Origin: an uncultured delta proteobacterium
GTDB lineage: Bacteria; Desulfobacterota; Syntrophobacteria; BM002
Length of the DNA: 64,000 nt
Direction of reading: 5' to 3'
NCBI GenBank assembly: GCA_963712115.1
Contig: CAVQGX010000030.1
Span: 96,001-160,000 of the forward strand
Position numbers and translations under genes: made by a program. The notes under the pieces are model-generated. The model had not been told where the DNA came from. It searched no databases and saw nothing but the letters and a program-made list of their open reading frames with translations. This document shows, piece by piece, positions 1,311-63,409 of the stretch. Position 1 is the stretch's first letter, and each line of letters starts with the position of its first letter.

Positions 1311-1317
1311 GTTAACC

Positions 1318-1382
1318 CGGAACTCGGATCGCGGAATTGGGAATTATTTTGTTCCCCTCCGCATTCCGCGTTCCGAATTCCC
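1318..1382. repeat. Inverted pair of GCGGAAT/ATTCCGC heptamer arrays
   Basis: cggaactcggatcgcggaattgggaatt ... ccgcattccgcgttccgaattccc. Confidence 0.65.
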
Positions 1383-1392
1383 ACTTAAAAAG

Positions 1393-3354: not shown

Positions 3355-3740
3355 CTCATAGTAAAGAAGTTGATTAGTCAAATCGTCAAATCGTCGAATA
3401 GTCAATTCGTTCAAATCGTTGAAGCCGTTCAAATCGTTTAAGTCGTTAAAGCCGTTGAAATCGTTGAAACCGTTCAGGTGGTTAATTAGTTAATTAGTCG
3501 ATTAGTCAATTCGTTCAAATCGTTAATTCGTCATTGAGGCCATTCATAACCATTTGACTATTCGACAAATTGACGATTTGACTTGCTGCCCTCTGACCGC
3601 TGACCTCCGACTTCTGACTTCTGTTTTCCTTCGTCTGTCTTCTACCTTTTACAACAAATGACAGCGCAGCGTAGTGACCTAATGACGCCGAAGGCAAATG
3701 ACTGTTCTGTCTTCTGCCCCCGTCTCGCTCTTCTCGCATT
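3352..3740. repeat. Composite intergenic short-repeat array (8-mer AATTAGTC, 9-mer ATCGTTCAA, 7-mer CTCTGAC, GTCTCGC) with a 63-bp dispersed core
   Basis: Read directly; 3467-3624 is the reverse complement of 8776-8933; 3641-3703 is the reverse complement of 11256-11318 and 15489-15551. Confidence 0.9.
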
Positions 3741-4637: not shown

Positions 4638-4790
4638 GATTGGAGATTGTGGATTTTAGATTGCAGAATCCTGAAACTTATAGTTTGGACCAGCACACTT
4701 GATTCGAACTGGATAGGCTGTTCCCCCGGGCACTAGGGGAAAGATGGCAGGGTTCCTAAATCTACAATCTTAGATCTACAATCTAAAATC
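4638..4790. repeat. Inverted pair of GATTGTA/TACAATC-type heptamer arrays
   Basis: gattggagattgtggattttagattg ... aatctacaatcttagatctacaatctaaaatc. Confidence 0.75.
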
Positions 4791-5558
4791 TTAGGCTAGG
4801 TCCAAATCAGGCGGTTGGGTCTTGGCGTATTCTTCATCCTCATCCGGCTCAACTTCAGGCTCGGGCCCGATGTTATCTTTGACATCATCGGGCAAAGCGC
4901 CATAGTTGATTCGGAGATAGGGAGCACCTATGCCGGGCGGGCGGTTCTTGTCGTATTTTACTGGCTCTCCCAGTTGTTGTTCGGTGGTAATGATTCGAAC
5001 TCCTTCACTTCCACCTGCCACACAGACTGAGACCTGGTCATCTGGGAAGCGGGCCCAGAAGATATTCACTTGGGCTGCTCCTTCTTTGGACCAACCGATG
5101 ACCCGTCGCTCCTTCTGATCTTTACTGAGAATCAGCCATACCTCATCGCTCTTGTGGATGTCAGAGAGAAGGCGAACCTTTTCCTTTTTTTCCTTTCTAG
5201 AGGTGTCTACCCCGACGTCGTAAAAGAAGGTGTTGACTATCTTTAAAACATCGGGAGGTAGGTCACGAGGCTCTAGAGATATGTGGCTCAACATCCATCC
5301 AGGTGGGAGGTCTTTTTCTTCTGGGTTGAAAGGAACAGTTTCCTCCGAGTTGGCCAGGATGCGCAGACCCGCGTCACCGCCGACCACCAACAGATCGATG
5401 AAACCACTAGACAATTCAGCCCAAAACACGCTTAGGTCGCACGGTCCGGACTTGGACCAACCAACCACAATTCGATGGAGCCGGTCTTCTAAGCTAGGAA
5501 GAATAAGGTATCTAGTTTTATACGCGTTTGAAACAGGAAATATAATTTCTTTCGCCAT
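4791..5558 (-). CDS. Hypothetical protein with an internal tandem domain duplication
   Basis: RIVVGWSKSG..VFWA..VVGGDAGLRI..PPG is repeated as RRVIGWSKEG..IFWA..VAGGSEGVRI..PPG. Confidence 0.75.
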   Translation of the reverse strand: MAKEIIFPVSNAYKTRYLILPSLEDRLHRIVVGWSKSGPCDLSVFWAELSSGFIDLLVVGGDAGLRILANSEETVPFNPEEKDLPPGWMLSHISLEPRDLPPDVLKIVNTFFYDVGVDTSRKEKKEKVRLLSDIHKSDEVWLILSKDQKERRVIGWSKEGAAQVNIFWARFPDDQVSVCVAGGSEGVRIITTEQQLGEPVKYDKNRPPGIGAPYLRINYGALPDDVKDNIGPEPEVEPDEDEEYAKTQPPDLDLA

Positions 5559-5666: not shown

Positions 5667-5800
5667 TCACGAGAAGCTAAGGCTCAATATAAGTTTATTT
5701 AATTCTAGCAAACCTGGTCCTCCGGGTCAGGTCAGTTCTCAATGGCTTCGCCGGTAAAGATGGCGAGGGCTTTTGGAGTTTTGGAGTACTAGAGGGATAG

Positions 5801-5932
5801 AAATTCCAAATCACAAATCACAAATTTCAAATAAATCACAATAACCAAAATTCAAAATTCCAAACCTGTTTCGGTCATTTGGTATTGGAATTTAAGATTT
5901 GTTTGTAATTTGGTGCTTGGAGTTTGGGATTT
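5801..5932. repeat. Gene-less AAATYCC/GGRATTT inverted arm pair nested in a GGAGTACT/ACTCCA pair
   Basis: 65-nt left arm and 66-nt right arm are colinear with the arms flanking the gene at 25529-25894; outer arms at about 5773-5790 and 5945-5960. Confidence 0.85.
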
Positions 5933-6162
5933 CAGTGACTTCACCACTCCATTACTCCAGCATACCGCGGCAAGAGCGAAAGACCTTGGCTCCCCTTCGG
6001 GGGATGGCAAGGGCCCGGATTCTTTATTTTACTCTTGCTCTTTAAGGTCTTCTGGGGATAAATGTAGAAGGACGCATAGCGCTTTAGGCACCCTAACAAA
6101 ATACTAATTCTTGCTACGCGATCTTTCGGGATTTGCGCTTGCCCTGCTGGGACAGAGGTCAA

Positions 6163-7550: not shown

Positions 7551-8474
7551 ATGCGTATAGTAGTGGTTGGGCAGGCGCCCTTTGGTGCCAAAGTACTGGA
7601 GGGACTGCTGGAAAAGGGAGAAGAGGTGGTGGCAGTATATACCCCTCCTGACAAAGGGAGTAGACTGGACCCTCTAAAGGAAGCAGCACTTGCCAAAGGA
7701 ATTGCGATTTATCAACCAGCAACCTATAAAGATGATCAAGTTTTCGCCGAATACAAAGACCTCAAACCTGACCTGACAATTTTGGCTTTTGTAACTGACA
7801 TTATTCCTGAAAAGTTTTTCACTGAACCCTCTCTCGGCACCATCTGTTACCATCCCTCTCTTCTCCCCCTGCACCGTGGCGCTAGCGCCATAAACTGGGC
7901 GATCATTATGGGTAGAGCCAAGACTGGTCTGACCATTTTTTGGCCGGACGGTGGAATCGATACAGGCCCAATTCTTCTCCAAAAGGAGGTGGAGATCGGA
8001 CCGGATGATACCACCGGGTCCATCTACTTCAATTATCTTTTCCCCATGGGAGTTGATGCCATCCTCGAGTCTGTAGATCTGATCAAAGAGGGCAAGGCCC
8101 CCAAAATTCAACAGGCGAAAGAAGGAGCCACTTACGAGCAGCCGTGCAGTGGTCGTGTGGCTGCCATAGACTGGGAAAGATCTGGCCAAGAAGTTTACAA
8201 TTTAGTGCGAGGCTGTGATCCTCAACCCGGGGCGTACAGTAAATTGAAGGAAGAAAAAGTCTGTTTTTACGGCGCTAGGCTCTTGCGGGAGTCCACTGAA
8301 GAGGTTCCTGGTACGGTAGTAAAAATAGACCCGGAGGGCTTTCAGGTAGCTGTGGAGGGAGGAAAACTGGCTGTCAGTAAAGTAAGGCCGGAGACTGGGG
8401 GCAAAATGGAGGCTGCGGCCTTTGCCTCGGAAAGAGGATTAGAAATAGGAGATCGATTTAGCAATGACGGGTGA
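7551..8474 (+). CDS. Formyltransferase (Fmt / 10-formyl-THF hydrolase N-terminal family)
   Basis: YHPSLLPLHRGASAINW, DGGIDTGPILLQ, RGCDPQPGA; AGGAGG RBS. Confidence 0.85.
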   Translation: MRIVVVGQAPFGAKVLEGLLEKGEEVVAVYTPPDKGSRLDPLKEAALAKGIAIYQPATYKDDQVFAEYKDLKPDLTILAFVTDIIPEKFFTEPSLGTICYHPSLLPLHRGASAINWAIIMGRAKTGLTIFWPDGGIDTGPILLQKEVEIGPDDTTGSIYFNYLFPMGVDAILESVDLIKEGKAPKIQQAKEGATYEQPCSGRVAAIDWERSGQEVYNLVRGCDPQPGAYSKLKEEKVCFYGARLLRESTEEVPGTVVKIDPEGFQVAVEGGKLAVSKVRPETGGKMEAAAFASERGLEIGDRFSNDG

Positions 8475-8718
8475 GACAGAACCAGACAAAGGGGAGATGG
8501 AGGAGGAGAACCGCCGAATACGGACCCTAAGACTCTTGGTGGATTTCTCTCTGGCTTACCTCGCCCAGACTAACTTGCCCCTGGAAGAGGCGCAGGCAGT
8601 CGTGGAAGGAGTTAAAAAACAGGCCTTGCGCCTTTTTCCAGAAAAGGAGGAGACCTTCGACCTGATTTACCTCCCAAGGTTTCGCCGTTTACTGAGGGAA
8701 AAGTATCACTTGCATTAG
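8464..8718 (+). CDS. Small hypothetical protein
   Basis: Overlaps the formyltransferase stop; LFPEKEETFDLIYLPRFRR. Confidence 0.7.
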   Translation: MTGETEPDKGEMEEENRRIRTLRLLVDFSLAYLAQTNLPLEEAQAVVEGVKKQALRLFPEKEETFDLIYLPRFRRLLREKYHLH

Positions 8719-8985
8719 CGCAGAGCGAATAGCGCTCTGCGCGGCGGGACGGGGATAGAGGTCAGAGGGCGGAGGACAGAAGTCAGAAGTCGGAGATCAG
8801 CGGTCAGAGGGCAGCAAGTCAAATCGTCAATTTGTCGAATAGTCAAATGGTTATGAATGGCCTCAATGACGAATTAACGATTTGAACGAATTGACTAATC
8901 GACTAATTAACTAATTAACCACCTGAACGGTTTGAACGATTCAACCACCTGAACGGTTTGAAGGCTTTGAAAGACTGCAACGGAT
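8716..8985. repeat. Composite intergenic short-repeat array
   Basis: GTCAGAG, GTCAAATC, GACTAATT and TTGAACGAT units; 8776-8933 is an inverted copy of 3467-3624. Confidence 0.9.
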
Positions 8986-8998
8986 AGCACTTAAAATC

Positions 8999-9769
8999 AT
9001 GAAAGAAATCTACCTACGCTTGATGAACGAATCGCGCTGCATTGCTTCTCGTTACGAGTTACCTGAATTCTACCGGCGATTCAAGCCTTCACTGGCAATT
9101 TCACGGCGTATTTTTTTTGATAACCCGTTGCTTATTCATTGCAGAGAGTTAGTTACCCCGCAATATCCGGGTGATTTTGGTCATGGACTTCAACATGCCA
9201 CCAAGGTGAGTGTTGATGCAGGTACCATTGTTCTTTTGGAAGGTGAGAAGTATTTTACTGTTCAAGCAGAATTAGAGCGTGCGGTTGTGCTGGTTCAACT
9301 CGCAGGACTTCTCCACGATTTAAAAAGGATGGAACACAAGCACGCCTCCGCCGGCGCTAAGGCGGCCAGAAAACTCCTATATGATTTTCCCCTCAGTCAC
9401 CCAGAGGTAAATTGCGTGGCAGAGGCCATAGCTAATCATGAAGCATTTTCTGAGCCCCAAATGTGCGAAACGCTAACAGGCCAACTGGTAGCCGATGCGC
9501 TCTATGACGCAGACAAATTCCGCTGGGGCCCGGACAATTTTACCCATACAGTCTGGTACATGATGAGTTACCACCAAGTAGACATAGCCGAGCTGTTTGG
9601 TCGCTTCCCATGGGGTGTAGATGGTATCGTCAGGATCAAGGATACTTTCAGAACGAATATAGGGGTTCAGTACGGCCCGGAGATCATCGATTTAGGAGTA
9701 AGGATCGGCAAAGAGATCTATCAACATCTGCAGAAATATCTACACTCGTTTAACCCGGATGTTTCATGA
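8999..9769 (+). CDS. HD-domain phosphohydrolase
   Basis: GHGLQHA, GLLHD, IANH, LYDADK; the stop codon lies inside the terminal repeat of the downstream MITE. Confidence 0.8.
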   Translation: MKEIYLRLMNESRCIASRYELPEFYRRFKPSLAISRRIFFDNPLLIHCRELVTPQYPGDFGHGLQHATKVSVDAGTIVLLEGEKYFTVQAELERAVVLVQLAGLLHDLKRMEHKHASAGAKAARKLLYDFPLSHPEVNCVAEAIANHEAFSEPQMCETLTGQLVADALYDADKFRWGPDNFTHTVWYMMSYHQVDIAELFGRFPWGVDGIVRIKDTFRTNIGVQYGPEIIDLGVRIGKEIYQHLQKYLHSFNPDVS

Positions 9770-10100
9770 ATCCGCCTAAGGCGGACCACGGATATGGCCG
9801 TCCTTCTCTCCGAGCAGTAGGCTCTACGAGCCGGACGCCGTGCGTCCTCGGGTGTCGGCCCCTGCGACGTACCATTCAGGTAGGCCTCGGCTTCGATCTT
9901 GGATTTGGGATTTCGGATCTCGGATTCTTGAGTACAATTAATGATATCGAACTTAACAGTTCAGATTTCACCATTTGTTTTCTGGTTCTCACGTACTCTT
10001 CAGCAAATTTTAAATCCGCAATCCGCATTCCGCAATCGTCGACCCGGCGGCCCGCCCATCTTCGTGGTCTGGTGACAGTAATTCATGAAATATCCGGGTT
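9752..10100. mobile_element. MITE-like element with 20-bp TIRs, carrying a nested heptamer-arm insertion
   Basis: AACCCGGATGTTTCATGAAT ... ATTCATGAAATATCCGGGTT; body matches the reverse complement of 22802-22985. Confidence 0.8.
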
Positions 10101-10138
10101 GAGAGAGTTGGGAGGAGACTCTAGAGAGTAGTCTTCAA

Positions 10139-11164
10139 GTGGACATGGAGACGGAGGGTAAGATTGCCCAGGGTGAAAGGGATGTGATGGTTTTCAATGA
10201 AAGCGAAGGCATCGACGGACTTCGCATAGGTCAGGTGACAGACAAAGAAAATAACACTGGTTGCACCGTTGTGCTGGCCGAAAATGGTGCTGTTGCAGGA
10301 GTTGATGTACGTGGAGGGGCACCAGGAACACACGGAACCGATGCCTTACGACCGGAAAACCTGGTAGAGCGACTACACGCAGTGGTCCTTACCGGTGGTA
10401 GTGCTTTTGGGTTAGCCTCGGTACAGGGAGTTATGCGATACCTACGTCAAAGGAATTGTGGTTTTCAAACCGAATACGGAGTGGTTCCTATTGTAAGCGG
10501 TGCAGTAGTTTTCGATCTCGGTCTAAACAGAAGTGAAACGCTTCCAGACGCCGATATGGGCTATCGAGCATGTGAAAATTCTTCAAAAGCGGGTGCTGAA
10601 CAGGGATGCGTGGGTGCAGGTACCGGTGCGACAGTGGGAAAGCTTTTCGGACTTGAACGTGCCATGAAGGGCGGACAAGGCTTCGCCTCTCTTGTTTCCC
10701 CCAATGGACTGAGGCTTTGGGTCCTGGCAGTAGTTAATGCTTTCGGTGACATTCGCAACCATGAGAATGGTCAGTTACTGGCAGGGGTGCGCACTAGAGA
10801 CGGACGGCGACTGGCAAATGCAGCTGCAAGCCTGACTGAGTTGGAAGTTTTGAGGGGTTTCTCGGCCACAAACACTGTCTTGGGTGTAGTGAGCACCAAT
10901 GCCACCCTTTCAAAAGCTGAACTCACGAGGGTGGCTCAAATGGCTCATGATGGTATTGCTCGTGCCGTTGTTCCTTCCCACACTCTTTACGATGGTGACA
11001 CCATCTTTGCCTTGAGTACGGGGTCTCATGGGCGAGTTGAGACAACTGTTGTTGGCGCGATTGCTGCCCAGTTAATGGGCCAAGCTATTGTCAACGCGGT
11101 TGTCCATGCTGTTGGGGTGGATAACCTTCCCGCCTACCAGGACCTTTTTGGAAATAGCCCATAG
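10139..11164 (+). CDS. P1/DmpA-family (S58) peptidase
   Basis: VDVRGGAPGT, LTGGSAFGL, GAGTGA, NTVLGVV, HTLYDGD; exact start uncertain. Confidence 0.85.
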   Translation: MDMETEGKIAQGERDVMVFNESEGIDGLRIGQVTDKENNTGCTVVLAENGAVAGVDVRGGAPGTHGTDALRPENLVERLHAVVLTGGSAFGLASVQGVMRYLRQRNCGFQTEYGVVPIVSGAVVFDLGLNRSETLPDADMGYRACENSSKAGAEQGCVGAGTGATVGKLFGLERAMKGGQGFASLVSPNGLRLWVLAVVNAFGDIRNHENGQLLAGVRTRDGRRLANAAASLTELEVLRGFSATNTVLGVVSTNATLSKAELTRVAQMAHDGIARAVVPSHTLYDGDTIFALSTGSHGRVETTVVGAIAAQLMGQAIVNAVVHAVGVDNLPAYQDLFGNSP

Positions 11165-11480
11165 CGCAAAGCGCTTCGCGGCTGGTAAACAGTAAACGGT
11201 GAACGGTAAGCAGCGAGACGGGCGAGACTTGCGAGACGGGGGCAGAAGACAGAGTAGTCATTTGCCTTCGGCGTCATTAGGTCACTACGCTGCGCTGTCA
11301 TTTGTTGTAAAAGGTAGAGGACAGACGACGGAAAACAGAAGTCAGAAGTCGGAGGTCGGAGGTCAGAGAAAAGCGAGTTATTGGCTGATCTTTTGCTTAT
11401 AACGTATAACAAATAACGAATAACAACTCGTACCGTTCACCGTTTACCATTTAACGATTTCAACGACTTGAACGTTTTTA
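11162..11480. repeat. Composite intergenic short-repeat array
   Basis: CGGTAAA ... TTTACCG outer pair enclosing GCGAGAC, GTCAGAG and ATAACGA units and the 63-bp core; 11352-11437 nearly identical to 16525-16610. Confidence 0.9.
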
Positions 11481-11546
11481 ACCAGTGGGAGAATTGACAA
11501 CCGCACTGCAAATTCCTCTGGAATTAATGGAAATAGGAGTAAAAAC

Positions 11547-12113: not shown

Positions 12114-12214
12114 CAAGCTGTCGGCGAGAGGCGCGAGAAGAGATCATTCAATCCTTTTCATCCCAGACCTCTCGTCTCGCCCGACATCCCGTCTCGTAGC
12201 GCCACGTAGTGGCG

Positions 12215-13276: not shown

Positions 13277-13322
13277 GGGCGATCCACTGCCTTTGTTATT
13301 GCTTATACACCGAATTAGGTAA

Positions 13323-13338
13323 AGCAACCTTCATGCCA
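13323..13338 (-). promoter_or_regulatory. Sigma54 promoter for the diguanylate cyclase
   Basis: Minus strand TGGCAT-GAAGG-TTGCT. Confidence 0.7.
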
Positions 13339-13580
13339 ACACCAAAGTTTAAGAGGACAGAAGACAGAAGACAGAAGACAGAAGTCAGAGGTCAGAGGTC
13401 AGAGATCAGTGAGTTATAGGCTGATCTTTTGCGTATAACGAATAACGGATAACGGATAACGGATAACATCTCATACCGCTCACTGCTCACCGCTACCGCT
13501 TACCATAAGGACTACCTCTTGAATCAATTGTAACACCTATGCTACTTAGGATGGACACTATAGTGAAAAGGAAGTGCTAA

Positions 13581-14270: not shown

Positions 14271-14506
14271 CTCACAGCTCATAGCTCGAAAGGAGTTCGT
14301 CAATTAGTTAATTAGTTGATTAGAGAACTAGAGAATTAGTTAATACAGTTAAGCAGTTGACCGTTTACCGTTCACCATTTACGATTTGAACGACTTTAAC
14401 GACTTCAACGATTTGAACGATTTGAACGGCTGCAACGAATGAACTAATTCTCTAATTACCTAATTCTCTAATTGACCTTGACTGTCTGCTGCGAGCTGCC
14501 TGCTGC
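14268..14506. repeat. Composite intergenic short-repeat array
   Basis: AGCTCAC; AATTAGTT ... CTAATT inverted pair enclosing TTTACCG and TTGAACGAT units; CTGCCTG. Confidence 0.85.
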
Positions 14507-14519
14507 TTTGGGGTGATCA

Positions 14520-15730: not shown

Positions 15731-15763
15731 TTTGTAACAGATAACGAACTTGGGCTTTCGGTT

Positions 15764-19972: not shown

Positions 19973-19980
19973 CTGGTCTT

Positions 19981-20071
19981 AGTTCCAGGTTCCAGGTTCA
20001 AAGTTTCAAATTATGATCCTCATTAGGTTTTTATAGATTAAACTTGAAACTTTGAACTTGGTACTTTGAAC
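19981..20071. repeat. Gene-less GTTCCAG/AACTTGA inverted heptamer pair inside the RND operon
   Basis: agttccaggttccaggttcaaagtttcaaa ... aacttgaaactttgaacttggtactttgaac. Confidence 0.8.
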
Positions 20072-21166: not shown

Positions 21167-21461
21167 AGAGGGCTCCTAATCTGCCTTGGAACGTTTGAAT
21201 ATCCAAAACAAATAGTTTAGCACGCACCATGCCTAGTTACAAGAAGCAGAAGCAGAGCGTATAGCGTCAATTGGTTGATTAGAGAACTAGTCAACTCGTC
21301 GATTGGTCGAGTAGTCAAATCGTTAAAGCCAATGAAGACGTCCATCACAGAGGTCAGAAGTCGGAGATCAGAGATCAGCTTTAACCCTGACCTCCGACAT
21401 CTGATCTCTGACCTCTAAGTTCTACCTGCTGCCAGGTAAAATCTGTCATCTGTCGTCTATC

Positions 21462-21995: not shown

Positions 21996-22067
21996 AATAT
22001 TTCCTCATTGACGCGTAGGCTTCTAAAAGGGTGGCAGAAGGATTTGTCTTCTAAGGATTCCTGCGGC

Positions 22068-22691: not shown

Positions 22692-22801
22692 GGGTATCTC
22701 CTAATGGCAGGACCATAGTGAGGTTATCTTGTTGAAAAGTTCTCTATCTAAGTTCACAGTCTTTAATTAAACTTAGAGGCTGTTGTCAAGCAAAAGTTCA
22801 C

Positions 22802-22985
22802 TAGCCCGGATGTTTCATGAATTGCTGTCACGAGAGCACGAAGATGGGCGGGCCACCGGGCAACCGCAGGGTGTTGGTCCCGAGGCGCACCTGAATGGTA
22901 CGTCGCAGGGACCAACACCCGAGGACGGCAGGAAGGATGCCCATATTCGTGGTCGCAGTAAGCGATTCATGGAATATCCGGGCTA
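22802..22985. mobile_element. MITE-like element (uninterrupted copy)
   Basis: TAGCCCGGATGTTTCATGAAT ... ATTCATGGAATATCCGGGCTA; CTAG at both ends; homologous to 9752-10100. Confidence 0.8.
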
Positions 22986-23234
22986 GATCACTCGAAGCCT
23001 CGATTGTTTGGTTTCTAGCCCGGTAAAGACTGACCTCCCCTTCTTGATCGGGCTTTTCGTGCATGTTATAGTTCCTCTTATACTTTTTATATTCGGTTTT
23101 CTCGTCACTAATAAAGCACTCTGCTCCTAGGACATGGAGGACCCATAAGGGATAATCCCACAGCGCTGTGGGGTGCTATATTTTTTTCCGTATTACAGGT
23201 CATACAAAAATAGTCATTAAGGACGGAGCAATCA

Positions 23235-23968: not shown

Positions 23969-23982
23969 TATGAGGTGACGGG

Positions 23983-25248: not shown

Positions 25249-25443
25249 TAAATCCCGGATGTATAGAAAATAATTCGAATTTTTTGAATCGATTTTTCCA
25301 CAATATTCACGAACCACCATTTACAAATTAAAGGTTTCTACGGCTTCCTGTGAGCTATGAGCTTTCAGCTGTCAGCTAACTTGACGCCTTCAACATTTTG
25401 AACGACTTGAACGCTTTGAACGACTTGCCCCCCTCTTTCCCCC

Positions 25444-25473
25444 TTGACTTTCACCTAACTTTCACCCTATAAT
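25444..25473 (+). promoter_or_regulatory. Sigma70 promoter of the SOS cassette with an overlapping direct-repeat operator
   Basis: TTGACT-N18-TATAAT; ACTTTCACC at 25447-25455 and 25458-25466. Confidence 0.7.
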
Positions 25474-25488
25474 TCAAACATAGTTTGT

Positions 25489-25960
25489 AAATCCGAAATC
25501 CCAAGCACGAAATCCTAAACAAATTCAAATGTCCAAAGCACAAAATTCAAAACAATACGATTTGGAAGATCGCACTCTGGCTTTTGCTAAAGATGTACGC
25601 AGTTTCGTGAAAAAACTGCCGAAAACTTTAGCCAATATCGAAGACGGCAGACAGCTGATCAAAGCCCCCGGCTCCGTTGGTGCCAATTACATTGAAGCTA
25701 ATGAAGCTTTAAGCAAAAAAGATTTCATTATGAGAATTAAGATATGTCGCAAGGAGGGGAAAGAAAGCCGATATTGGCTGAGGTTGATTAGCACGGAAGA
25801 CATTAGAGAACTTGAAGAAGAAAGACGAGATTTGGAAAGAGAAGCCAGCGAGCTCACCAGTATTTTTGGTTCCATCCTGACTAAAAGCTCATGATGTTTT
25901 GGTGATTTGAAATTGGGATTTGGGATTTGTTTAGGATTTAGGATTTAGATATTGGGATTT
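25489..25960 (+). mobile_element. Four-helix-bundle cassette 1 (AAATCCY arms)
   Basis: Left arm 25489-25553 and right arm 25895-25960 are in-register inverted heptamer arrays; mobility is inferred. Confidence 0.6.
25529..25894 (+). CDS. Four helix bundle protein (23S rRNA IVP / bAvd-like)
   Basis: DLEDRT..F, QLIKAPGSVGANYIEA, SKKDF, ESRYWLRL. Confidence 0.9.
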   Translation: MSKAQNSKQYDLEDRTLAFAKDVRSFVKKLPKTLANIEDGRQLIKAPGSVGANYIEANEALSKKDFIMRIKICRKEGKESRYWLRLISTEDIRELEEERRDLEREASELTSIFGSILTKSS

Positions 25961-26038
25961 TCCCTAATCACCGTTTACCGTTCACCATTTACGAATTGAC
26001 TAATCAACGAATTGACCAATTGACTCAGAGGTATACCC

Positions 26039-26657: not shown

Positions 26658-27200
26658 GCGAGACGAGCGAGACGGGAGGTCGAGCGAGACGGGGATTAAA
26701 TATCAAAATGATTACGCAGGTAATTACATGAGAAAGGGGCGCCATTATGAGTAAAAGCAAAAAGGTTAGTCGGTTCGAAGATTTGGAAGTTTGGCAGGAA
26801 GGATGTGATCTCGCTGTTCAAATTTACAAGCTGTCGAGAGAAGGAAAACTTGCAAGGGATTATGGTCTCAGGGATCAGATGACTAAATCCGCAGTTTCTA
26901 TTCCCTCAAACATAGCCGAGGGTAAGGAGCGTGAGACGGCACCAGAACTTATCCGCTACCTTTACATTGCCAAAGGCTCTACTGGTGAGTTGCAAACACA
27001 AATATACATAGCTCAGAGAATCGGCTACGTGGACGAAGGAACATCCTACAACCTTATTCAGCAAACCAAAGTTTTGTCCAAAAAACTAGGCAGCTTCATT
27101 CAATACCTTAAAAGAAACGTTGAGCTAGCGAGAAAGTGAGACAAGATAAAAAGGTCTGATCATTACTCGTCTCGCCCGTCTCGCTCGTCTCGCGTCTCGC
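26658..27200 (+). mobile_element. Four-helix-bundle cassette 2 (GCGAGACGG arms)
   Basis: gcgagacgagcgagacgggaggtcgagcgagacggg ... ctcgtctcgcccgtctcgctcgtctcgcgtctcgc; mobility is inferred. Confidence 0.6.
26747..27139 (+). CDS. Four helix bundle protein (23S rRNA IVP / bAvd-like)
   Basis: FEDLEVWQ, DQMTKSAVSIPSNIAEG, AKGSTGELQTQ, GY. Confidence 0.92.
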   Translation: MSKSKKVSRFEDLEVWQEGCDLAVQIYKLSREGKLARDYGLRDQMTKSAVSIPSNIAEGKERETAPELIRYLYIAKGSTGELQTQIYIAQRIGYVDEGTSYNLIQQTKVLSKKLGSFIQYLKRNVELARK

Positions 27201-27210
27201 GAAAATTGCT

Positions 27211-28446
27211 ATGCTTCGCGAAAAGATGATAAGCGAAATCTTACACTTAGATATCCGCGACTTCTGCATTGCCCTGGAACGGCAGCGACGGCCTGATCTG
27301 AGGGAATGGCCGGTAGTCGTCGCACCGGGGCAGGGGCGAACGGTGGTCCAGGCTGTCTCTCCCGAAGCCCGAGAGGAAGGCATACATCCGGGTATGGTCG
27401 TGGCTCGGGCCCGACAGTATTGCCGCCGTCTTACTGTGCTGCCTCCGGATTTCTCGCTCTATCGGCAAGCCCAGGAAAAGATAGTGACCGCTTTAGGAAG
27501 GTTTTCGCCCTTGGTGGAGCCGGCCTCCTGGGGACATTTCTTTGTTGATGCCACCGGGACTCGTCGCCTCTGGGGGGGGTTGCTCGATAGGGCTGATCTG
27601 ATGCGGCGATTGGTGGATACAGAATTTCAACTGGATACTGCTGTGGGTGTGGCCAGCAACAAACTGGTGAGCCGGGTTGCCTCCCGGGTGGTGAAGGCTC
27701 GGGAATTGTGTGATGTTTTTCCTGGACTGGAGGCTTCTTTCCTCTCACCTCTGGCGGTAAATGTTCTTCCCGGGGTGGGGGAAGTGACCACCGCCAGATT
27801 GCTAGCCGAACTTAATCTTCAAACCGCGGGAGAATTAGCCCACGTCTCCCCAATGCTTTTGAGTCAGATATTTGGAGCCGTGGGGCAAAGGCTTCGGAGC
27901 ATGGCTTTGGGAGAAGATCCCTCACCGGTGCTAACACCGAAAGCCGTGCCCATGTTGCGGGAAGAGGTTCAACTGCCGGAAGATGATAATCACCGGCATA
28001 GGTTGTTGGGTTATCTCTATGGGCTCGTTGAAGCACTGGGCCGCCGGTTGCGTTCCCAAAATCGCTGTCCCGGTGAACTGGCCCTTACAGCGACCTATGC
28101 AGACGGTGTTCAGGCGAGGGCGCGGGAGCGACTTGCTGTTGCCGGCTGTGAATTTCATTTGGACAGTTTTCTATATGAGGCAGCGTTACGGCTTTTCACT
28201 CAGGCTGTTCAGCGACGTATACGCTTAAGACGTTTGTCTCTAAACGTCGCCCATCTCCAGACCCCTTTCGGCCAACTGGCCTTATTCCCCTGGGACGACC
28301 CCGGCCGGGGCAAAGAGGTCAAGCTACTACGGGCTATCGACCAAGTCCGCCACCGTTTCGGTAACGAGGTGCTTTACTATGGACGCACGGAGGTCAGACG
28401 ACGGAGGACAGAGATCAGACGTCAGAGGTCAGAGGACAGAACTTAA
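27211..28446 (+). CDS. imuB: Y-family polymerase homolog, ImuB-like (catalytic acidic residues degenerate)
   Basis: HLDIRDF instead of DMDAF; SWGHFFVD instead of SIDEAFLD; QLALF clamp motif; upstream of dnaE2; last ~20 aa are encoded by a repeat arm. Confidence 0.8.
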   Translation: MLREKMISEILHLDIRDFCIALERQRRPDLREWPVVVAPGQGRTVVQAVSPEAREEGIHPGMVVARARQYCRRLTVLPPDFSLYRQAQEKIVTALGRFSPLVEPASWGHFFVDATGTRRLWGGLLDRADLMRRLVDTEFQLDTAVGVASNKLVSRVASRVVKARELCDVFPGLEASFLSPLAVNVLPGVGEVTTARLLAELNLQTAGELAHVSPMLLSQIFGAVGQRLRSMALGEDPSPVLTPKAVPMLREEVQLPEDDNHRHRLLGYLYGLVEALGRRLRSQNRCPGELALTATYADGVQARARERLAVAGCEFHLDSFLYEAALRLFTQAVQRRIRLRRLSLNVAHLQTPFGQLALFPWDDPGRGKEVKLLRAIDQVRHRFGNEVLYYGRTEVRRRRTEIRRQRSEDRT

Positions 28447-28906
28447 GGGGTGACCAAAAATGCGCATTAATTCTGCAAAAGAGCTGAAGGTCTATCAAGA
28501 AGCTTACAGCTTGGCGATGGAGATTTTTGAAATCAGTAAGCAATGGCCACCCGAAGAGAAGTATTCTCTCATAGATCAGGTCAGACGATCATCCCGCTCA
28601 GTCTGTACAAATTTGCGTGAGGCCTGGTCGAAGAGGAGATATAAAGCACATTTCGTCAGCAAATTAACTGATTCCGATGGTGAAAATAGTGAGACTGATA
28701 CCTGGTTGGATTTTGCAAAAGATTGCGGATACGTGGAAAAAAGTGATCACACTCGACTGACGGAGAGATGTACGCGTGTCGGAAAGATGCTTGGGTCTAT
28801 GCTCAACAACCCTACACCGTTTTTAAGACGCTGACTTCTGATCTCCGATCTCCGATTTCTTATTTGCTGACCTCTGACCTCCGACTTCTGACCTCTGTGA
28901 TAGACG
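28389..28906 (+). mobile_element. Four-helix-bundle cassette 3 (GTCAGAG arms)
   Basis: ggaggtcagacgacggaggacagagatcagacgtcagaggtcagaggacaga ... ctgacttctgatctccgatctccga..ctgacctctgacctccgacttctgacctctg; mobility is inferred. Confidence 0.6.
28460..28834 (+). CDS. Four helix bundle protein (23S rRNA IVP / bAvd-like)
   Basis: ELKVYQ, EEKYSLIDQVRRSSRSVCTNLREAW, ETDTWLDFAKDCGY. Confidence 0.92.
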   Translation: MRINSAKELKVYQEAYSLAMEIFEISKQWPPEEKYSLIDQVRRSSRSVCTNLREAWSKRRYKAHFVSKLTDSDGENSETDTWLDFAKDCGYVEKSDHTRLTERCTRVGKMLGSMLNNPTPFLRR

Positions 28907-37992: not shown

Positions 37993-38925
37993 ATGGAATG
38001 CATATTACTCGGCAGCGGCGGCATGATGCCAATGCCGTATAGGCTTCTTACTTCACTGGCGGTTCGGTTCAATGGCAGAATCTACATTTTCGACGCCGGT
38101 GAAGGCACCCAGCTTGGATTGAAAAAAACCAAGATAGGCATACGCGGGTTGAATGTCCTGGCGGTGAGTCATCTCCACGCCGATCACTGTCTTGGCATTC
38201 CTGGCATTATGATGCTGAAGGCACAAATCGAGGACCCTGAACCACTCACCATAATAGGCCCCCCCGGAATCAAACAGTTCGTGGAACAAGCCCACGCTAA
38301 CCTTGGTTTCTTCTTGAATTTTACCGTTAGCTTTTTGGAATGGTCAGAGCAAAACAGTGAGGTGGCTTACGAAGATGGCAAGATTCGGATCATCTGGCAT
38401 CCACTAGAACACAGCCGCTTCTGCCTGGGTTATCGTTTAGAGGAATTAGATCGACCAGGAAAATTTAAACCTCACCTAGCTACATCCCTTGAAATTCCAA
38501 AGGGGTCTCTTTGGGGCAAATTGCAGCAAGGTGAGTCGATCACCCTTGAAGATGGCACGGAGATCTCACCCGAACAGGTTTTAGGTCAGCCAAGGAGGGG
38601 ACGCCATGTAGCCTATGTGGTAGACACCAGGCCTTCAAAGGGGGTTTACCGGCTCTGCCAAGATGCGGACATTGCTTTTATGGAAGGCATGTTCCTGCCT
38701 GAGCACTCTGAACATGCGGAGGCCAAGGGACACCTTACTGTGGTGGATGCAGCCCGCATTGCCGGCAGGGCTGGGGTACGTCGTGCTGTACTGGTTCACA
38801 TCAGCCCGCGCTATAATAGTGATGAGCTATCTCTTCTGGCAGAAGCAGCCAAATCTCGCTTTAACGGGGCGGAGGTTGGTGAAGACTTTAAAGTCTACCA
38901 GGTACCGTTGCCGGAAGATGATTAA
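37993..38925 (+). CDS. rnz: Ribonuclease Z
   Basis: LGSGGMMP, FDAGEGTQ, SHLHADH, exosite GKF..PKG..WGKLQ, HISPRY. Confidence 0.9.
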   Translation: MECILLGSGGMMPMPYRLLTSLAVRFNGRIYIFDAGEGTQLGLKKTKIGIRGLNVLAVSHLHADHCLGIPGIMMLKAQIEDPEPLTIIGPPGIKQFVEQAHANLGFFLNFTVSFLEWSEQNSEVAYEDGKIRIIWHPLEHSRFCLGYRLEELDRPGKFKPHLATSLEIPKGSLWGKLQQGESITLEDGTEISPEQVLGQPRRGRHVAYVVDTRPSKGVYRLCQDADIAFMEGMFLPEHSEHAEAKGHLTVVDAARIAGRAGVRRAVLVHISPRYNSDELSLLAEAAKSRFNGAEVGEDFKVYQVPLPEDD

Positions 38926-39104
38926 GAACGCATAGCGCAAAGCGCAGAGCGCAGAACGTCGCGATAGGTGATGGGTAATGGGTAATCGGTGAGAGGTAAC
39001 CTATAACCTATGACCTATAAACCATTACCCGGCGAAGCCGTGATTTGAACGATTTGACTAATTGACTAATCGACCAATCAACCAATTGACTAAATACGAA
39101 GGAA

Positions 39105-39281
39105 ATGCCTTTGAGTCGCAGAGGGCGATTTGGAAAATATGGAGACCTCAAGAGGAAATCGAGGCTGAGGGCGGCGCGACTTGCTAAGCGCAAGAGATTC
39201 GGAGCAAATGCGTATTTGCCTGGAGGGCGGAGGAAGGCAGCAGGCAGCGGGCAACGGGCAGCCGGCAAAGGGCGGAAGTGA
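39105..39281 (+). CDS. Putative 58-aa highly basic small protein (below the ORF-track cutoff)
   Basis: AAGGA RBS; MPLSRRGRFGKYGDLKRKSRLRAARLAKRKRFGANAYLPGGRRKAAGSGQRAAGKGRK; the C-terminal part runs into a repeat arm. Confidence 0.4.
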   Translation: MPLSRRGRFGKYGDLKRKSRLRAARLAKRKRFGANAYLPGGRRKAAGSGQRAAGKGRK

Positions 39282-44522: not shown

Positions 44523-44720
44523 GCAGAGGTCAGAGGTCGGAGATCAGAAGTCAGATTTCAGCTGGCAGCTCGCACCCGGCAGCTCGCAGGTTAGGTTAAT
44601 TAGAGAATTAGAGAATTGGGTAAGTCTCAGAAAACGTTACAGTTCACCGTTTACCTTTTACCATTCACTTAAACTAATCAACCAATCAACTAATTGACTA
44701 TTTAACTAACCGAAGAACAA

Positions 44721-47984: not shown

Positions 47985-48015
47985 CGCTGCGCGCAGACGA
48001 CATCAAGTAAAAATC

Positions 48016-48114
48016 AGAGGTCAGAGATCAGATGTCGGAGGTCAGAAATCAGATGCTGGAGGTTAGGGCTAAAGCTGATTTCTGATCTCCGACTTCTGAC
48101 CTCTGTGATGGACG
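48016..48114. repeat. Gene-less GTCAGAG/CTCTGAC inverted arm pair
   Basis: Reverse complement of 21339-21416 plus a 21-bp (3x7) expansion; end 48087-48118 matches the cassette 3 end 28879-28910. Confidence 0.85.
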
Positions 48115-48181
48115 ATTTCAACGATTTCAACGGTTTAACTTTAGTTGATCTATTTTACACCATGCGGCATGGGGGAGGTAA

Positions 48182-49621: not shown

Positions 49622-49749
49622 CTGGCGAGACGCGCGAGACGCGCGAGACGTGAAAGAGCTGGAGTACTGGAGTTCTTTTACACTCGACCTCCAGTCTCGC
49701 CCGACCTCCCGTCTCGCTGTTTATGCGCCTCGCGCATAAAGAATTCGTT

Positions 49750-60358: not shown

Positions 60359-60711
60359 CTCCGAACTGTTTGGACTAAAATCGGAGTGTAACAGCTTTTT
60401 GGGGCACATTTTAACAACTTGCATCTCACATTCAACTACATCTCCTTCTCATCTAGTGGCACGACCTGTCCAGGAGGCAGGCTTGCAAATACTCTTCGAT
60501 TTATCAGCGAGCAGTAATTCTCACTATGCTTTTTCATTAGAAGCCGAGAAAACTGGTCCTTTGCGCAAGATCAGAGGTCCATGGCTTTGCCCTTAAAAAT
60601 GTCCAGGGGATTTGAAGTATGGGGTGAGCTCAAAGACAGGCCCTGAGGGCCTGGATGGTTTACCCTAGTTGAGAGCATCAAGCCGTTGCTTTCTTCCCAC
60701 CATGGAGTGAT

Positions 60712-63159
60712 ATGGACAGCCAATCTCTTCGTGTCCTTGAGTTTCAACATATCCAAAGCTTTCTACAGTCACTTGCCCTCACTGGACCTGGACGGCAAGC
60801 AGTGGCGCATGTCCGTCCCATAACGGACAAAGAGCAAATCCAGGTCTTGCTCGACCAAGTAACAGAACTCAAGGAATATCTGCAAATCGGTAATTCGCTG
60901 CCCCTCGGAGGCATTCATGAACTTGTTAGTACCATTGAGCAAGTGAGTGGTTCCGGGCAATCGTTGCAGCCTGCTGAGCTCCTTGACGTGGCTGAGACCT
61001 TGAGAGCGACTAGTACACTGCAGCAGTTGGTGAGCCGCTGCGAGGCACAGTATGGCAGACTGGCAGATCTCCTGGGGAATCTGGAGCCGATACCGGAGTT
61101 GGAAAGGAAGATCAGTCGAGCTATTGATCATCGAGGTCAAATAAAAGACGGAGCTAGTCAAGAACTTGGGCGAATCAGAAAAGAGATTGGCGATGTGCGC
61201 AAGCGTCTCCATGAAGAGCTCGAAGAAGTTTTGGAAAAGCAGGCTTCCCAGAAGACGCTACAGGAGAAGCTAATTAGCGTTCGCAACGACCGGCTGGTAA
61301 TTCCTCTCCGCAGTGGTGCCAAAGGGGCGCTAGAGGGTATTGTGCACGCTACTTCCCACAGTGGTGCCACCTGCTTTGTAGAACCGCTCTCTGCTGTACC
61401 TCTCAACAACCGACTCAGTCAAGCCCGGAGTCGCGAACGGGAAGAGGAAGCACGAATCCTCCGGGAATTGACCGACGCTGTGTTGGCAGCTGCAGAAGTT
61501 ATCCGACACAACGAGAGCTGGTTGGGATTCATAGACTGTGTACATGCCAAGGTCCGCTTGAGCACTCTTCTCATTGCTCGTGCCCCCCAGATTGACGACG
61601 GTGGCAGGATACGACTACTTCAGGCTTCCCATCCCATTTTAGCTTTGCAGGAAGGGGCCCAGAAGACCTCTTCATTACCCTCTGCGCTGACTGAAGTAGT
61701 CTTGGGGGCTGAAGTATCTGAAAGGAGCAAATCCGAGCAGACAGAGGTTGTGCCAATAGACCTCTACCTCGATGAAGATCAAAAGACCATGATAATCAGC
61801 GGTGCGAACACTGGAGGTAAGACTGTATCTTTGAAAACCCTTGGTCTTTTAGGTGCTATGGTGCAGGCCGGGCTACACATTCCAGTGGCTGAGGGTAGCG
61901 AATGGCCGGTGCTGACGAATATATTTGCCGAAATTGGTGACGAACAAGACGTGCGGGCCCATCTGAGTACGTTTTCAGCCAGAATCCAGAGATTGGTGAC
62001 AATGTTGAAAAAGGTTGACCGTCGCTCTCTTGTGCTGCTCGATGAAATCGGAACTGGCACTGATCCAGCGGAAGGTGCTGGCCTTGCGTTGGCCCTGCTG
62101 GATCAACTCAGGAAACAGGGGCCCTTTGTTATGGTTACAACCCACTACCACCTTATTAAGGCATACGGCATGCTCCATGAAGAGGTGGAAAACGTTTCAG
62201 TGGCCTTTGATGAAAAGAGTGGGCGTCCCACCTATCAGTTGATTTATGGTCATCCTGGAACCAGTAATGCCCTACAGATAGCCGCCGACCTCGGCATGCC
62301 CTCGAACATTTTGGAGACAGCCCGAGGCTATGTCGATAAAGACGAGAGTAGAGCAATTGATTTGATTCGAGAACTGACTGATACTTTGAGGAGGACCAAG
62401 ACCGAAGAAGAGCACTTGAGATCACAGCGACGGAAGTTGGAACTTGCGCAGGATGAATTGGTGCAACAGCGAAGCCGGCTTGTCGAGTCTCGTGAGAGGA
62501 TTTTAAGCGAACTGCGGGAGCAAGGTGGGGAGTTAATCGAAGGGGCCGAAAAAGAGCTGAAATCAGCCATTGCCCTTTTACAGAAAGCCGGCATGCGAGA
62601 GGCGATGGGGGTTCGTAAGAGGGTTAGGGAGGTCAAAAAAGAGCTGCGGTCCGCACTGAAATCACAAGCACAGCCAGAGTATAGGGGGGTGAAACCTTCT
62701 GCGGAAGGGCAGTTGGTTCGTCTGCGCGGTCTTGGCTCCAGTGGAACCCTTGTTAAAATAAAAGACCAAGGACGTCGCGCAGAAGTGCAAGTGGGCCCGA
62801 AGCGGGTGGAAGTGGACATGGAGGTCCTTGAACTCTTGACAACTGAGCAGGGTGAAGACAGCAGAACAACAAGGATGAACGGGATTAGAATATTTCGTGA
62901 GGAACCTGAGACCTGTCAGCAGCGATTGCACTTGGTGGGGCTCAGGGTGGAAGAGGCACTTCCTCTACTGGATAAAGCGATTGATCGGGCGCTTATGGAT
63001 GGTTGCAGCCAAATTCACGTAGTTCATGGACACGGCACCGGAAAGCTGCGCAAGGCGGTGCAAGACTTCCTCAGTGACCATTCCGTGGTCAAAGGGTTTC
63101 ATCCTGAAAACCAGAGCGCTGGAGGCACCGGGGTTACAGTGGTTGAGCTCAAGGACTGA
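60712..63159 (+). CDS. mutS2: MutS2 with Smr domain
   Basis: SGANTGGKT, IGDEQ, LSTFS, LLDEIGTGTDP, TTHY; Smr HGHGTGKL..GGTGVT. Confidence 0.95.
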   Translation: MDSQSLRVLEFQHIQSFLQSLALTGPGRQAVAHVRPITDKEQIQVLLDQVTELKEYLQIGNSLPLGGIHELVSTIEQVSGSGQSLQPAELLDVAETLRATSTLQQLVSRCEAQYGRLADLLGNLEPIPELERKISRAIDHRGQIKDGASQELGRIRKEIGDVRKRLHEELEEVLEKQASQKTLQEKLISVRNDRLVIPLRSGAKGALEGIVHATSHSGATCFVEPLSAVPLNNRLSQARSREREEEARILRELTDAVLAAAEVIRHNESWLGFIDCVHAKVRLSTLLIARAPQIDDGGRIRLLQASHPILALQEGAQKTSSLPSALTEVVLGAEVSERSKSEQTEVVPIDLYLDEDQKTMIISGANTGGKTVSLKTLGLLGAMVQAGLHIPVAEGSEWPVLTNIFAEIGDEQDVRAHLSTFSARIQRLVTMLKKVDRRSLVLLDEIGTGTDPAEGAGLALALLDQLRKQGPFVMVTTHYHLIKAYGMLHEEVENVSVAFDEKSGRPTYQLIYGHPGTSNALQIAADLGMPSNILETARGYVDKDESRAIDLIRELTDTLRRTKTEEEHLRSQRRKLELAQDELVQQRSRLVESRERILSELREQGGELIEGAEKELKSAIALLQKAGMREAMGVRKRVREVKKELRSALKSQAQPEYRGVKPSAEGQLVRLRGLGSSGTLVKIKDQGRRAEVQVGPKRVEVDMEVLELLTTEQGEDSRTTRMNGIRIFREEPETCQQRLHLVGLRVEEALPLLDKAIDRALMDGCSQIHVVHGHGTGKLRKAVQDFLSDHSVVKGFHPENQSAGGTGVTVVELKD

Positions 63160-63409
63160 GCGCTTTGAGCTCAGTCCACACACTAAGCACTTATAAAAGT
63201 ATAAGATAACCATTTGATAAAATTATTTAAAATAGTTTTGATTTGAAAAACTAGTTTAAGTTTGTTGATGCAAATTAAATGGCTTGATTTTGGCGGATGG
63301 AACCAACATCTCTAAGCTTTTGACTAATTTTTTAAGCAGTGCTTGTTGCCGAGTTATTAGTGCCTACTGCCTAGTGTTTAGTGCCTAGTGGACAAAGTGG
63401 GGACCAAAA

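Follow-up and report, generated by a model that had tools for sequence, protein, structure and literature searches.

The intergenic DNA of a 64,000-nt stretch from an uncultured delta proteobacterium (hereafter the window; assembly GCA_963712115.1, contig CAVQGX010000030.1, positions 96,001 to 160,000) is crowded with tandem arrays of 7-9-nt units. With moderate confidence, we propose that this DNA has been colonised by hairpin repeats with tandem 7-9-mer arms: cassettes like the intervening sequences (IVS) of 23S rRNA, now mostly gene-less derivatives, resized by slippage and rapidly replaced. The arrays exist, the polarity of their arms is fixed, forms with and without the gene have arms and one flank in common, near-identical copies are dispersed, and spacer contents turn over between relatives. 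The cassette gene encodes a four-helix-bundle protein of family PF05635 (S23p/Avd-type), whose other known contexts are 23S rRNA intervening sequences and the accessory proteins of diversity-generating retroelements (DGR).

The alternative that survives best is slippage alone. Arrays would then arise in place, with 7-nt units favored, inverted pairs would come from local hairpins (e.g. old terminators) expanded on both arms, and four-helix-bundle genes would merely land or stay there. We regard this as rather unlikely. That the arrays are host-selected regulatory elements, acting either as stems that process or stabilize mRNA or as binding sites for a protein (four-helix-bundle, cold-shock/S1-type, or nucleoid protein), strikes us as quite unlikely. 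The evidence on each is given below as it arises.

Tandem 7-9-mer arrays fill the intergenic DNA

Tandem arrays were listed with Tandem Repeats Finder (TRF), which returned 170 rows for the window. Using hand-curated genes (45 spacers, 14,227 non-coding bp, and 49,773 coding bp), arrays covered 3,819 bp of non-coding DNA (27%) compared to 255 bp of coding DNA, and 34 of the 45 spacers contained at least one. Across 43 window spacers (14,207 bp), 115 arrays of period 7-9 were found, compared to 1.1 on average, and at most 4, in 20 dinucleotide shuffles. A first-pass annotation of the window had described its spacers as mosaics of more than 10 array families. Both the intergenic arrays and their diversity were confirmed, with 71 distinct canonical units among 120 non-redundant arrays. 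Of 16 units named at that stage, 12 passed a strict tandem rule (an exact copy and then another with no more than one mismatch). AACTTGA, GCTGTGA, GATTGTA, and TTGAACGAT failed this rule, yet TRF arrays are present at those places, with the units GATTGTA itself, the rotation CTGTGAG, the one-mismatch variant TTGAACGAC, and the period-14 unit AACTTGAAACTTTG. The exclusion of clustered regularly interspaced short palindromic repeats (CRISPR) also held, as units here are 7-9 nt and directly abut, whereas CRISPR comprises 23-47-nt repeats with unique spacers of similar length. So did the exclusion of classical repetitive extragenic palindromes (REPs).

Genome-wide, TRF returned 4,676 rows, led by period 7 (2,115) and followed by periods 9 (541), 14 (455), and 8 (426). 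In total, the genome holds 3,082 arrays, built from 792 distinct canonical units, and their density in the window is approximately threefold the genome average (19.5 versus 6.3 arrays per 10 kb). Arrays covered 7.2% of non-coding and 0.35% of coding DNA, figures which, like all genome-wide spacer statistics here, are approximate because the 4,002 genes were called by a crude script based on open reading frames (ORFs) and codon usage. Tandem repetition beyond composition, dominance of heptamers, and bias toward non-coding DNA place these arrays with the class of long simple sequence repeats (LSSR) and short tandemly repeated repetitive sequences (STRR).

Some of these properties suit slippage alone. 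The number of distinct units (792) is one; another is that an excess of intergenic heptamers is general in bacteria and ascribed to polymerase slippage (Mrazek 2007, as summarized in the accessible text of PMC4679880 and PMC4692102). Against it, array families recur in a fixed order joined by conserved non-array linkers (GTCAGAG, then ATAACGn, then TACCGYT, then a 9-mer). A composite linker, GAGTTATTGGCTGATCTTTTGC, was also considered as a major module family and was rejected, having only 5 copies.

Inverted arms keep a fixed polarity

The first-pass annotation had further described the arrays as nested and as often forming inverted pairs of left and right arms. Units were scored as inverse when some rotation of one fitted the reverse complement of the other with at most one mismatch, and arrays were assigned to spacers. 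Genome-wide, 229 same-spacer inverted pairs were counted, compared to 59.4 ± 8.0 (maximum 82) in 200 permutations of arrays among spacers; this and all other strict pair counts are lower bounds because TRF overlooks weak arms. The pairs fall in 212 of the 727 spacers having at least two arrays, with a median inter-arm gap of 31 nt. Same-spacer direct pairs were depleted in the same permutations (35 versus 58.9 expected).

Polarity was kept within families for 157 of 161 pairs (23 families with at least three pairs), which argues against slippage in place. The 5' arm contained more G than C in 156 pairs and more C than G in 32. Likewise, in co-directional spacers G-rich arrays lie closer to the upstream stop codon (relative position 0.39) than C-rich arrays (0.53; p 2e-20).

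Pairing therefore stands far above chance genome-wide, but as a minority state, with seven strict inverted pairs among the 120 arrays of the window. That the majority of arrays are unpaired is as slippage alone would have it. Nesting is harder to judge, as just eight spacers genome-wide hold two pairs (two nested, two crossing, and four serial), leaving no power for a test. The original observation is real, but "inverted" and "nested" are true of a significant minority of arrays. All three sites named as nested (5773-5960, 11162-11480, and 14268-14506) do fold as nested stems, and the spacers within the RND operon, between ispG and proS, and between proS and relA are hairpins. Paired and folded sites in the window are as follows, with strand where one is assigned, minimum free energy (MFE), and fold z-score against shuffles.

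4638..4791: inverted pair GATTGTA / AAATCTA with a 90-nt spacer; the family also occurs at other loci
5773..5960: nested hairpin, outer 8-mer GGAGTnnT arms and inner CAAATCA-type arms; MFE -60.9 kcal/mol
11165..11546: mosaic spacer with outer pair GTAAACA (11185-11213) / TACCGTT (11431-11453); z -3.8
14271..14519: nested hairpin A B [C D] B' A' (AGCTCAC, AATTAGnn, GTTTACC, and the 9-mer ACGATTTGA); MFE -77.1 kcal/mol, z -5.4
19973..20071: hairpin GTTCCAG / AACTTGA between the RND pump and membrane-fusion genes; MFE -33.0 kcal/mol, z -5.6
48014..48136, + strand: in the ispG-proS spacer, GTCAGAG hairpin (blastn copy 48038-48105) with a 9-mer ACGATTTCA array after it; z -5.3
49622..49722, + strand: GCGAGACG hairpin between proS and relA; MFE -43.6 kcal/mol, z -4.6

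Inside the outer pair of the 11165..11546 spacer are arrays of GCGAGACGG, CAGAAGT, and ATAACGA along with a 60-nt element (11250-11312), and a 9-mer array comes after the pair; the MFE of 11162-11480 is -99.4 kcal/mol. The proS-relA hairpin consists of three left units, a loop with GGAGTACT units, and a CGTCTCGC right arm that runs up to the relA start.

PF05635 cassettes share arms with gene-less arrays

The genome contains 14 PF05635 matches, 13 of them above the curated cut-off. Seven of these 13 loci lie between inverse arms, and the arm family varies by locus. Of the 4,002 called genes in total, inverse arrays flank 25 on both sides and direct arrays flank 31, which is chance level; PF05635 genes make up 3 of the 25. 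The contrast between 7 of 13 and 25 of 4,002 speaks against four-helix-bundle genes having merely landed among arrays formed by slippage. Inverse arms (at most one mismatch) were also found at 20 of 36 PF05635 loci in 11 genomes (the present one, eight congeners, and two others of the class), with two more loci having arms with two mismatches. The remaining loci are often at contig ends. Compared with IVS-type elements, a PF05635 ORF is present in three window elements, and terminal inverted repeats forming a long stem around the ORF in the loci just counted. Gene-less arrays are at most derivatives of IVS-type cassettes because they carry no PF05635 ORF.

The three window genes comprise two among lexA-imuB-dnaE2 and a third just upstream of lexA.

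25353..26024, + strand: four-helix-bundle gene 25529-25894 (PF05635 profile match, E 2e-11) with arrays on both sides
26658..27193, + strand: four-helix-bundle cassette between lexA and imuB, gene 26747-27139
28382..28897, + strand: four-helix-bundle cassette between imuB and dnaE2, gene 28460-28834

At the first, an upstream AAATCCG-type array pairs with downstream TTGGGAT (25913-25960). The second has arms of GCGAGACGA x3.9 (26658-26691) and CGTCTCGCC x2.9 (27168-27193), and the third has GAGGTCA x7.3 (28390-28440) and CTGACCT x4.4 (28867-28897). These loci were compared with genome G001, a relative syntenic with positions 1-28834 of the window whose proteins are 75-99% identical. The first cassette gene has no match in the syntenic G001 stretch, the counterpart of the second is a 145-nt gene-less AATTAG-type hairpin spacer, and the third gene is present with 92% identity. 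The lexA-imuB-dnaE2 SOS mutagenesis operon (26039-31903) thus has two cassettes inside and one just upstream, and in G001 has only the imuB-dnaE2 one.

Gene-less arrays draw on the same arm families. Of 2,986 arrays away from PF05635 genes, 45.6% fit one of 21 arm families, compared to 17.6 ± 0.8% of letter-shuffled units; for heptamers alone, the values were 61% and 25%. Furthermore, the gene-less hairpin between ispG and proS, a copy of the 71-nt element described below, is collinear with the 28382-28897 cassette, matching its left arm at 27 of 30 positions and its right arm plus a 19-nt flank at 40 of 43. This hairpin is that cassette minus its interior. Of seven pairs of related cassettes, four show homology up to the arms only, with unrelated flanks; the other three share flanks and therefore represent an orthologous locus. 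The first-pass annotation had interpreted the arrays as footprints of cassette insertion and decay. The shared arm families, the collinear hairpin, and the non-homologous flanks all support a cassette origin. Our literature search, which did not extend to subscription journals and supplements, returned no paper linking gene-less intergenic heptamer arrays to PF05635 cassettes.

Dispersed hairpins combine with arrays into mosaics

The GTCAGAG "pairs" proved to be copies of a 71-nt gene-less hairpin in which both the order of variant units and the loop are constant. The genome contains 28 copies of at least 55 nt with 88-100% identity, representing 23 distinct sequences. Dispersed copies with such constancy are difficult to attribute to slippage at each site.

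Also dispersed is a 60-nt element with 52 near-full copies in the genome, interleaved with arrays. Its 3' end (GGTAG; conserved sequence TTGTAAnAGGTAG) directly abuts heptamer arrays of many families. GGCAGCn arrays often precede this element, giving a layout like a leader followed by an array.

21348..21416, - strand: 71-nt GTCAGAG hairpin copy (blastn, 98.6% identity)
11250-11312, 15483-15545, and ~3647-3709 (- strand): copies of the 60-nt element (copy list)
13352..13504: unpaired composite module in the order GTCAGAG-type, ATAACGG, ACCGCTC (TRF)

The order of the 13352..13504 module is repeated at 15555-15728, 16472-16610, 39431-39494, and 46553-46848; its own spacer folds no better than shuffles (z +0.4). 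High-copy extragenic imperfect palindromes combined into mosaics are a feature shared with REPs and bacterial interspersed mosaic elements (BIMEs), and the interleaving of arrays with dispersed elements reads as a BIME-like mosaic.

Spacers are replaced between relatives

In 14 of the 20 orthologous spacers shared with G001, the best local alignment spanned under 30% of the shorter spacer. The RND spacer contains an AACTTGA hairpin here and a GCGAGACG-type hairpin in G001. The 14271-14519 spacer likewise differs in contents, with similar fold energies (-77.1 versus -75.5). In 11 relatives, the proS-relA spacer has GCGAGACG, GGTAATn, or ATAACGn hairpins, or long composites; the GCGAGACG hairpin is conserved in L001 and L005. 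Such whole replacement, as opposed to resizing, argues against slippage alone. A hairpin kept at the same operon-internal spacer while its family differs between relatives (the RND and 14271-14519 spacers) would be expected of a host-selected regulatory element. Elsewhere, a spacer of 255 nt here has a 29-nt counterpart in G001, and another of 369 nt has one of 25 nt; such content is therefore dispensable, which argues against regulation.

Length changes in whole units, as in LSSRs, were seen in a few cases and are in keeping with slippage. A DNA contig (run X3) lacks 21 nt (three units) of the GTAAGCA array at 43847, and the left arm of the proS-relA hairpin has three units here versus four in L001. 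In an RNA-library contig (X16), just 35 other letters stand between 44516 and 44715. As contigs, the X16 and X3 records are evidence of variant forms, not of transcription.

These repeats break metagenome assemblies and wipe out spacer homology among close relatives. The source metagenome-assembled genome (MAG) measures 4.9 Mb in 70 contigs, with 48.9% G+C and an estimated contamination of 6%. Contigs C34 (~16881-19059) and C35 (~552-2730) contain the same two hairpin copies at equal spacing, and the shared region is probably a duplicated or doubly assembled part of the MAG. By proS (87-96% identity), the nearest relatives are MAGs that carry the labels Deltaproteobacteria, Syntrophobacterales, or Desulfobacterota; two (L001 and L005) are closed chromosomes. 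A cyanobacterial host, suggested by the resemblance of the repeats to STRR heptamers, was rejected on the strength of these relatives. An artefact of assembly or binning (collapsed or chimeric repeats) is highly improbable, for despite the fragmentation, contamination, and mutually duplicate contigs of this MAG, like arrays occupy syntenic spacers of independently assembled relatives, including both closed chromosomes, and the same stretch is covered by contigs of four public runs from different studies. The matches to these four runs are contigs only, such that uncovered stretches carry no information and RNA ends, strand, and level are not readable.

Arrays start at stop codons and show limited signs of RNA-level function

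As the first-pass annotation had noted, arrays frequently start at the upstream stop codon. Of the first arrays at gene 3' ends, 17.5% begin within 3 nt and 27% within 10 nt, compared to 4.9% and 8.2% of those at 5' ends. Starts 3.5-fold more common at stop codons than at gene starts would suit a regulatory role, as would the proposal, in the accessible text of PMC4679880, that TAACTGA repeats are translational regulators. Against such a role, modules showed little preference for junction type, occurring at 156 of 2,562 co-directional (6.1%), 30 of 484 convergent (6.2%), and 21 of 485 divergent (4.3%) junctions.

A GCGCAAAGCGC-type small hairpin or AGCGCAn heptamers often begin in or just after TAG/TAA stop codons (window positions 11162, 26642, and 38927, and after the proS stop in L004, L006, L007, and L010), with the stop codon forming part of the first repeat unit. 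Some arrays extend into reading frames. The GAGGTCA arm encodes the C terminus of ImuB (about 20 residues; 28382-28446), both here and in G001, so that a repeat array is now part of the reading frame.

The 71-nt element favors one orientation in co-directional spacers, with 17 sense and 3 antisense copies; two sense and two antisense copies are on the mutually duplicate contigs C34 and C35. Its sense RNA is predicted to fold more stably than the antisense (-44.1 versus -37.8 kcal/mol), with three conserved G-U pairs. This sense bias counts in favor of host-selected regulation. Resemblance to intrinsic terminators was absent: 22 terminator-like sites were found in 8001-28000, compared to 20.2 ± 5.9 in shuffles, none of them in an array hairpin, and downstream of the 71-nt hairpin lies TGATGGAC, not a T run. 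All-frame stop codons were likewise rejected as the reason for 7- and 8-mers, as units containing stops on the sense strand were not favored (735 sense versus 665 antisense of 1,757 arrays). Both results count against regulation.

Results that weigh against a cassette origin

Several results do not fit the proposed cassette origin, or limit it. No more than 458 of the 2,604 spacer arrays can belong to the 229 inverted pairs, so that most have no detectable partner, and these counts share the approximate gene calls described above. Folds were better than shuffles at z < -3 in only 9 of 33 window spacers (median z -0.85). Copies in the CACTAGG, GGAGTAAT, GATGTGA, and GATTGTA families share arms but have unrelated loops, and such families need not be copies of one element. 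No transposase partner or other mobility enzyme was found in association with the arrays, and no target-site duplication was seen in filled-versus-empty comparisons.

At the RNA level, strand asymmetry of folding was absent over 156 co-directional modules (76 versus 78; Wilcoxon p 0.78). Only the 71-nt element shows asymmetry, and general RNA-level selection as judged from G-U asymmetry was rejected; the absence of overall asymmetry also counts against host regulation. The 71-nt hairpin displayed no double changes indicative of covariation among its 23 distinct sequences, which are too alike. RNase III cutting is reported for the IVS of Coxiella burnetii (PMC4990558, accessible text), whereas here it is by analogy only. 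The mRNA stems predicted by the first-pass annotation are partly supported. The orientation of the 71-nt element, its stabler sense fold, and the reported cutting of the Coxiella IVS speak for them; the lack of asymmetry across all modules speaks against, as does the fact that most array-rich spacers are not folded beyond shuffles.

Array load was also expected to track the number of four-helix-bundle genes, and at the present sampling it did not. Of 181 Desulfobacterota genomes sampled, 105 contained PF05635; counts ranged from 0 to 14 matches per genome, with the present genome tied for the maximum. For array density, a single stretch (20 kb at most) was drawn from each of 80 genomes irrespective of PF05635, and the 69 with at least 5 kb were kept. 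Across these, PF05635 matches and heptamer arrays per 10 kb gave a Spearman coefficient of 0.14 (p 0.24, n = 69), with the caveat that samples are small and related genomes are non-independent. Mean heptamer densities for genomes with 0, 1-2, 3-6, and at least 7 matches were 0.59, 0.69, 1.16, and 2.08 per 10 kb. Genomes with 10-13 matches gave 0-0.5 heptamer arrays per 10 kb in the sample. Conversely, the close relative G187 (coordinates shared with G001) has one match at E <= 1e-10, yet 6.4 arrays per 10 kb over 72 kb. Array load does not follow gene number, and the array blooms are therefore lineage-specific rather than set by PF05635 number. This weak correlation is a further point for slippage alone.

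A second Desulfobacterota genus is rich in arrays. Its members L091 (G019), L096 (G061), and L142 (G098) contain 3.3-12.5 heptamer arrays per 10 kb and 6-8 PF05635 matches each.

Proposed history and its implications

In the cassette model that we favor, the founding form would be an IVS-like cassette consisting of a G-rich array, a PF05635 gene, and a complementary C-rich array. Most copies would be gene-less derivatives or lone surviving arms, mixed with other short modules into BIME-like mosaics. Spread would proceed by a copy or recombination step, and arms would lengthen or shorten in whole units through replication slippage. Where transcribed, paired arms would form long imperfect stems that are probably cut by RNase III, as is reported of the Coxiella 23S IVS. 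Such cutting would uncouple neighboring cistrons or free the four-helix-bundle mRNA. Most copies may be near-neutral passengers and not host regulators.

A broader hypothesis, which we consider speculative and doubtful, would make heptamer-armed hairpins a self-propagating IVS-type class. The PF05635 protein would act in trans as a mobility or maintenance factor that recognizes its own arm repeat, gene-less hairpins would be non-autonomous riders, and the heptamer excess of scattered lineages (cyanobacterial STRR, Xanthomonas, Beggiatoaceae, and this genus) would be debris of that class.

The excess of heptamers over chance in scattered bacterial lineages has no settled explanation in the accessible text of PMC4679880 and PMC4692102. 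In this genome, the arrays are dense enough for a grammar to be read, consisting of hairpin arms of fixed polarity and unit families shared with PF05635 cassettes. If the link is true, it would give context to an orphan protein family and a testable origin to heptamer repeats. Operon-internal spacers (RND pump, lexA-imuB-dnaE2, and ispG-proS-relA) would then be likely sites of RNase III processing.

Comparison with known systems

The closest precedent is the 23S IVS of Coxiella burnetii. According to the accessible text of PMC4990558, a PF05635 (S23p) ORF there lies between terminal inverted repeats, GACAGAT heptamers upstream of the ORF vary in number among strains, RNase III is reported to cut at the start of the first heptamer repeat, and a selfish or mobile nature of the IVS had been suggested by earlier authors. 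An ORF-bearing IVS is also known from Leptospira (Ralph and McClelland 1993, as cited in PMC4990558). The elements described here are similar in having a PF05635 gene inside long-stem inverted repeats, and the Coxiella heptamer resembles the GACAGAn/GTCAGAG family. In contrast to the IVS, they occupy spacers between protein genes instead of rRNA helix 25/45, the great majority are gene-less, and there are dozens of arm families per genome. No large IVS was found in the genome's own 23S rRNA gene (C2:49082-52088), which at 3,007 nt versus a 2,925-nt model has small expansions only.

Heptamer repeats of other lineages, including the cyanobacterial STRR heptamers reportedly described by Mazel in 1990, are alike in being tandem 7-mers that are enriched in non-coding DNA and variable in copy number. 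The accessible text of PMC4679880 places TAACTGA repeats in Beggiatoaceae, cyanobacteria, and Bacteroidetes, and that of PMC4692102 describes GGGAATC repeats in Xanthomonas, occasionally in inverted arrangements, and GGGGAYT repeats in Nostoc. Those texts give one or a few units per genome, unlike the 792 canonical units plus 8- and 9-mers here, and do not mention Desulfobacterota, the phylum of this host. The systematic pairing of arms, their fixed polarity, and the tie to a gene family also set the present arrays apart. Cyanobacterial STRR proper was ruled out, as the closest relatives are Desulfobacterota/Syntrophobacterales MAGs and the units differ from STRR1-3.

REPs, BIMEs, and REP doublets forming hairpins (REPINs) are similarly high-copy extragenic imperfect palindromes that form mosaics, lie downstream of genes or inside operons, and turn over quickly. 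Their unit is a unique 20-40-nt palindrome, whereas arms here are tandem oligomers, and no gene of the REP-associated tyrosine transposase (RAYT) type is flanked by repeats here. A RAYT/IS200 partner was specifically sought and rejected. None of the four PF01797 (Y1 transposase) matches is flanked by heptamer arrays or hairpins of the present kind, and two of the four genes are IS200-like with their own hairpins.

As with the small dispersed repeats of Nostoc, reportedly the subject of a 2008 study by Elhai, a small element (here of 60 nt) lies embedded in heptamer arrays. Miniature inverted-repeat transposable elements (MITEs) also exist as short non-autonomous copies whose ends are common to a gene-bearing form. 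Here, ends are shared with a gene-bearing cassette, but that cassette encodes a 120-aa helical bundle and no recognizable transposase, and target-site duplications were not seen.

Other features of the window

Apart from its spacers, the window has an ordinary chromosomal gene set, including an RND pump, lexA-imuB-dnaE2, ispG, proS, relA/spoT, mutS2, and dnaG. Searches for known RNAs returned no Rfam family and no tRNA. Five ORFs among the arrays (9766-10131, 39535-39888, 23108-23605, 46103-46378, and 8464-8718) matched no Pfam family at E up to 1. Further mosaics and dispersed elements are listed below.

3377..3623: array mosaic in a convergent spacer, with the 9-mer TCAAATCGT x11, the 8-mer GTTAATTA, and the 7-mer CTGACCT (TRF and sequence)
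9750..10098, + strand: ~350-nt dispersed element with internal arms GGATTTC (9901-9926) / AATCCGC (10013-10037)
22800..22986: ~185-nt dispersed repeat, not built of arrays; spacer fold z -13.7
38925..39120: AGCGCAn array from a stop codon, then a GGTAATG/TAACCTA hairpin, then 9-mer and 8-mer arrays (TRF)
44523..44720: array mosaic from the stop codon of a TPR gene, with GTCAGAG, CAGCTCG, AATTAGAG, TTACCGT, and AACTAATC (TRF)

The ~350-nt element lies between two co-directional genes and contains an open 121-codon frame with no Pfam family. It is missing at the G001 site, where just 25 nt separate the same two genes, and copies with 73-81% identity are present in three of five relatives' genomes searched (G003, G004, and G005). 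The ~185-nt repeat has 53 near-full copies here (approximately 87% identity) and occurs many times, with 86-91% identity, in the genome of each of five relatives. Public runs containing the window stretch come from marine, estuary, and other sediments.

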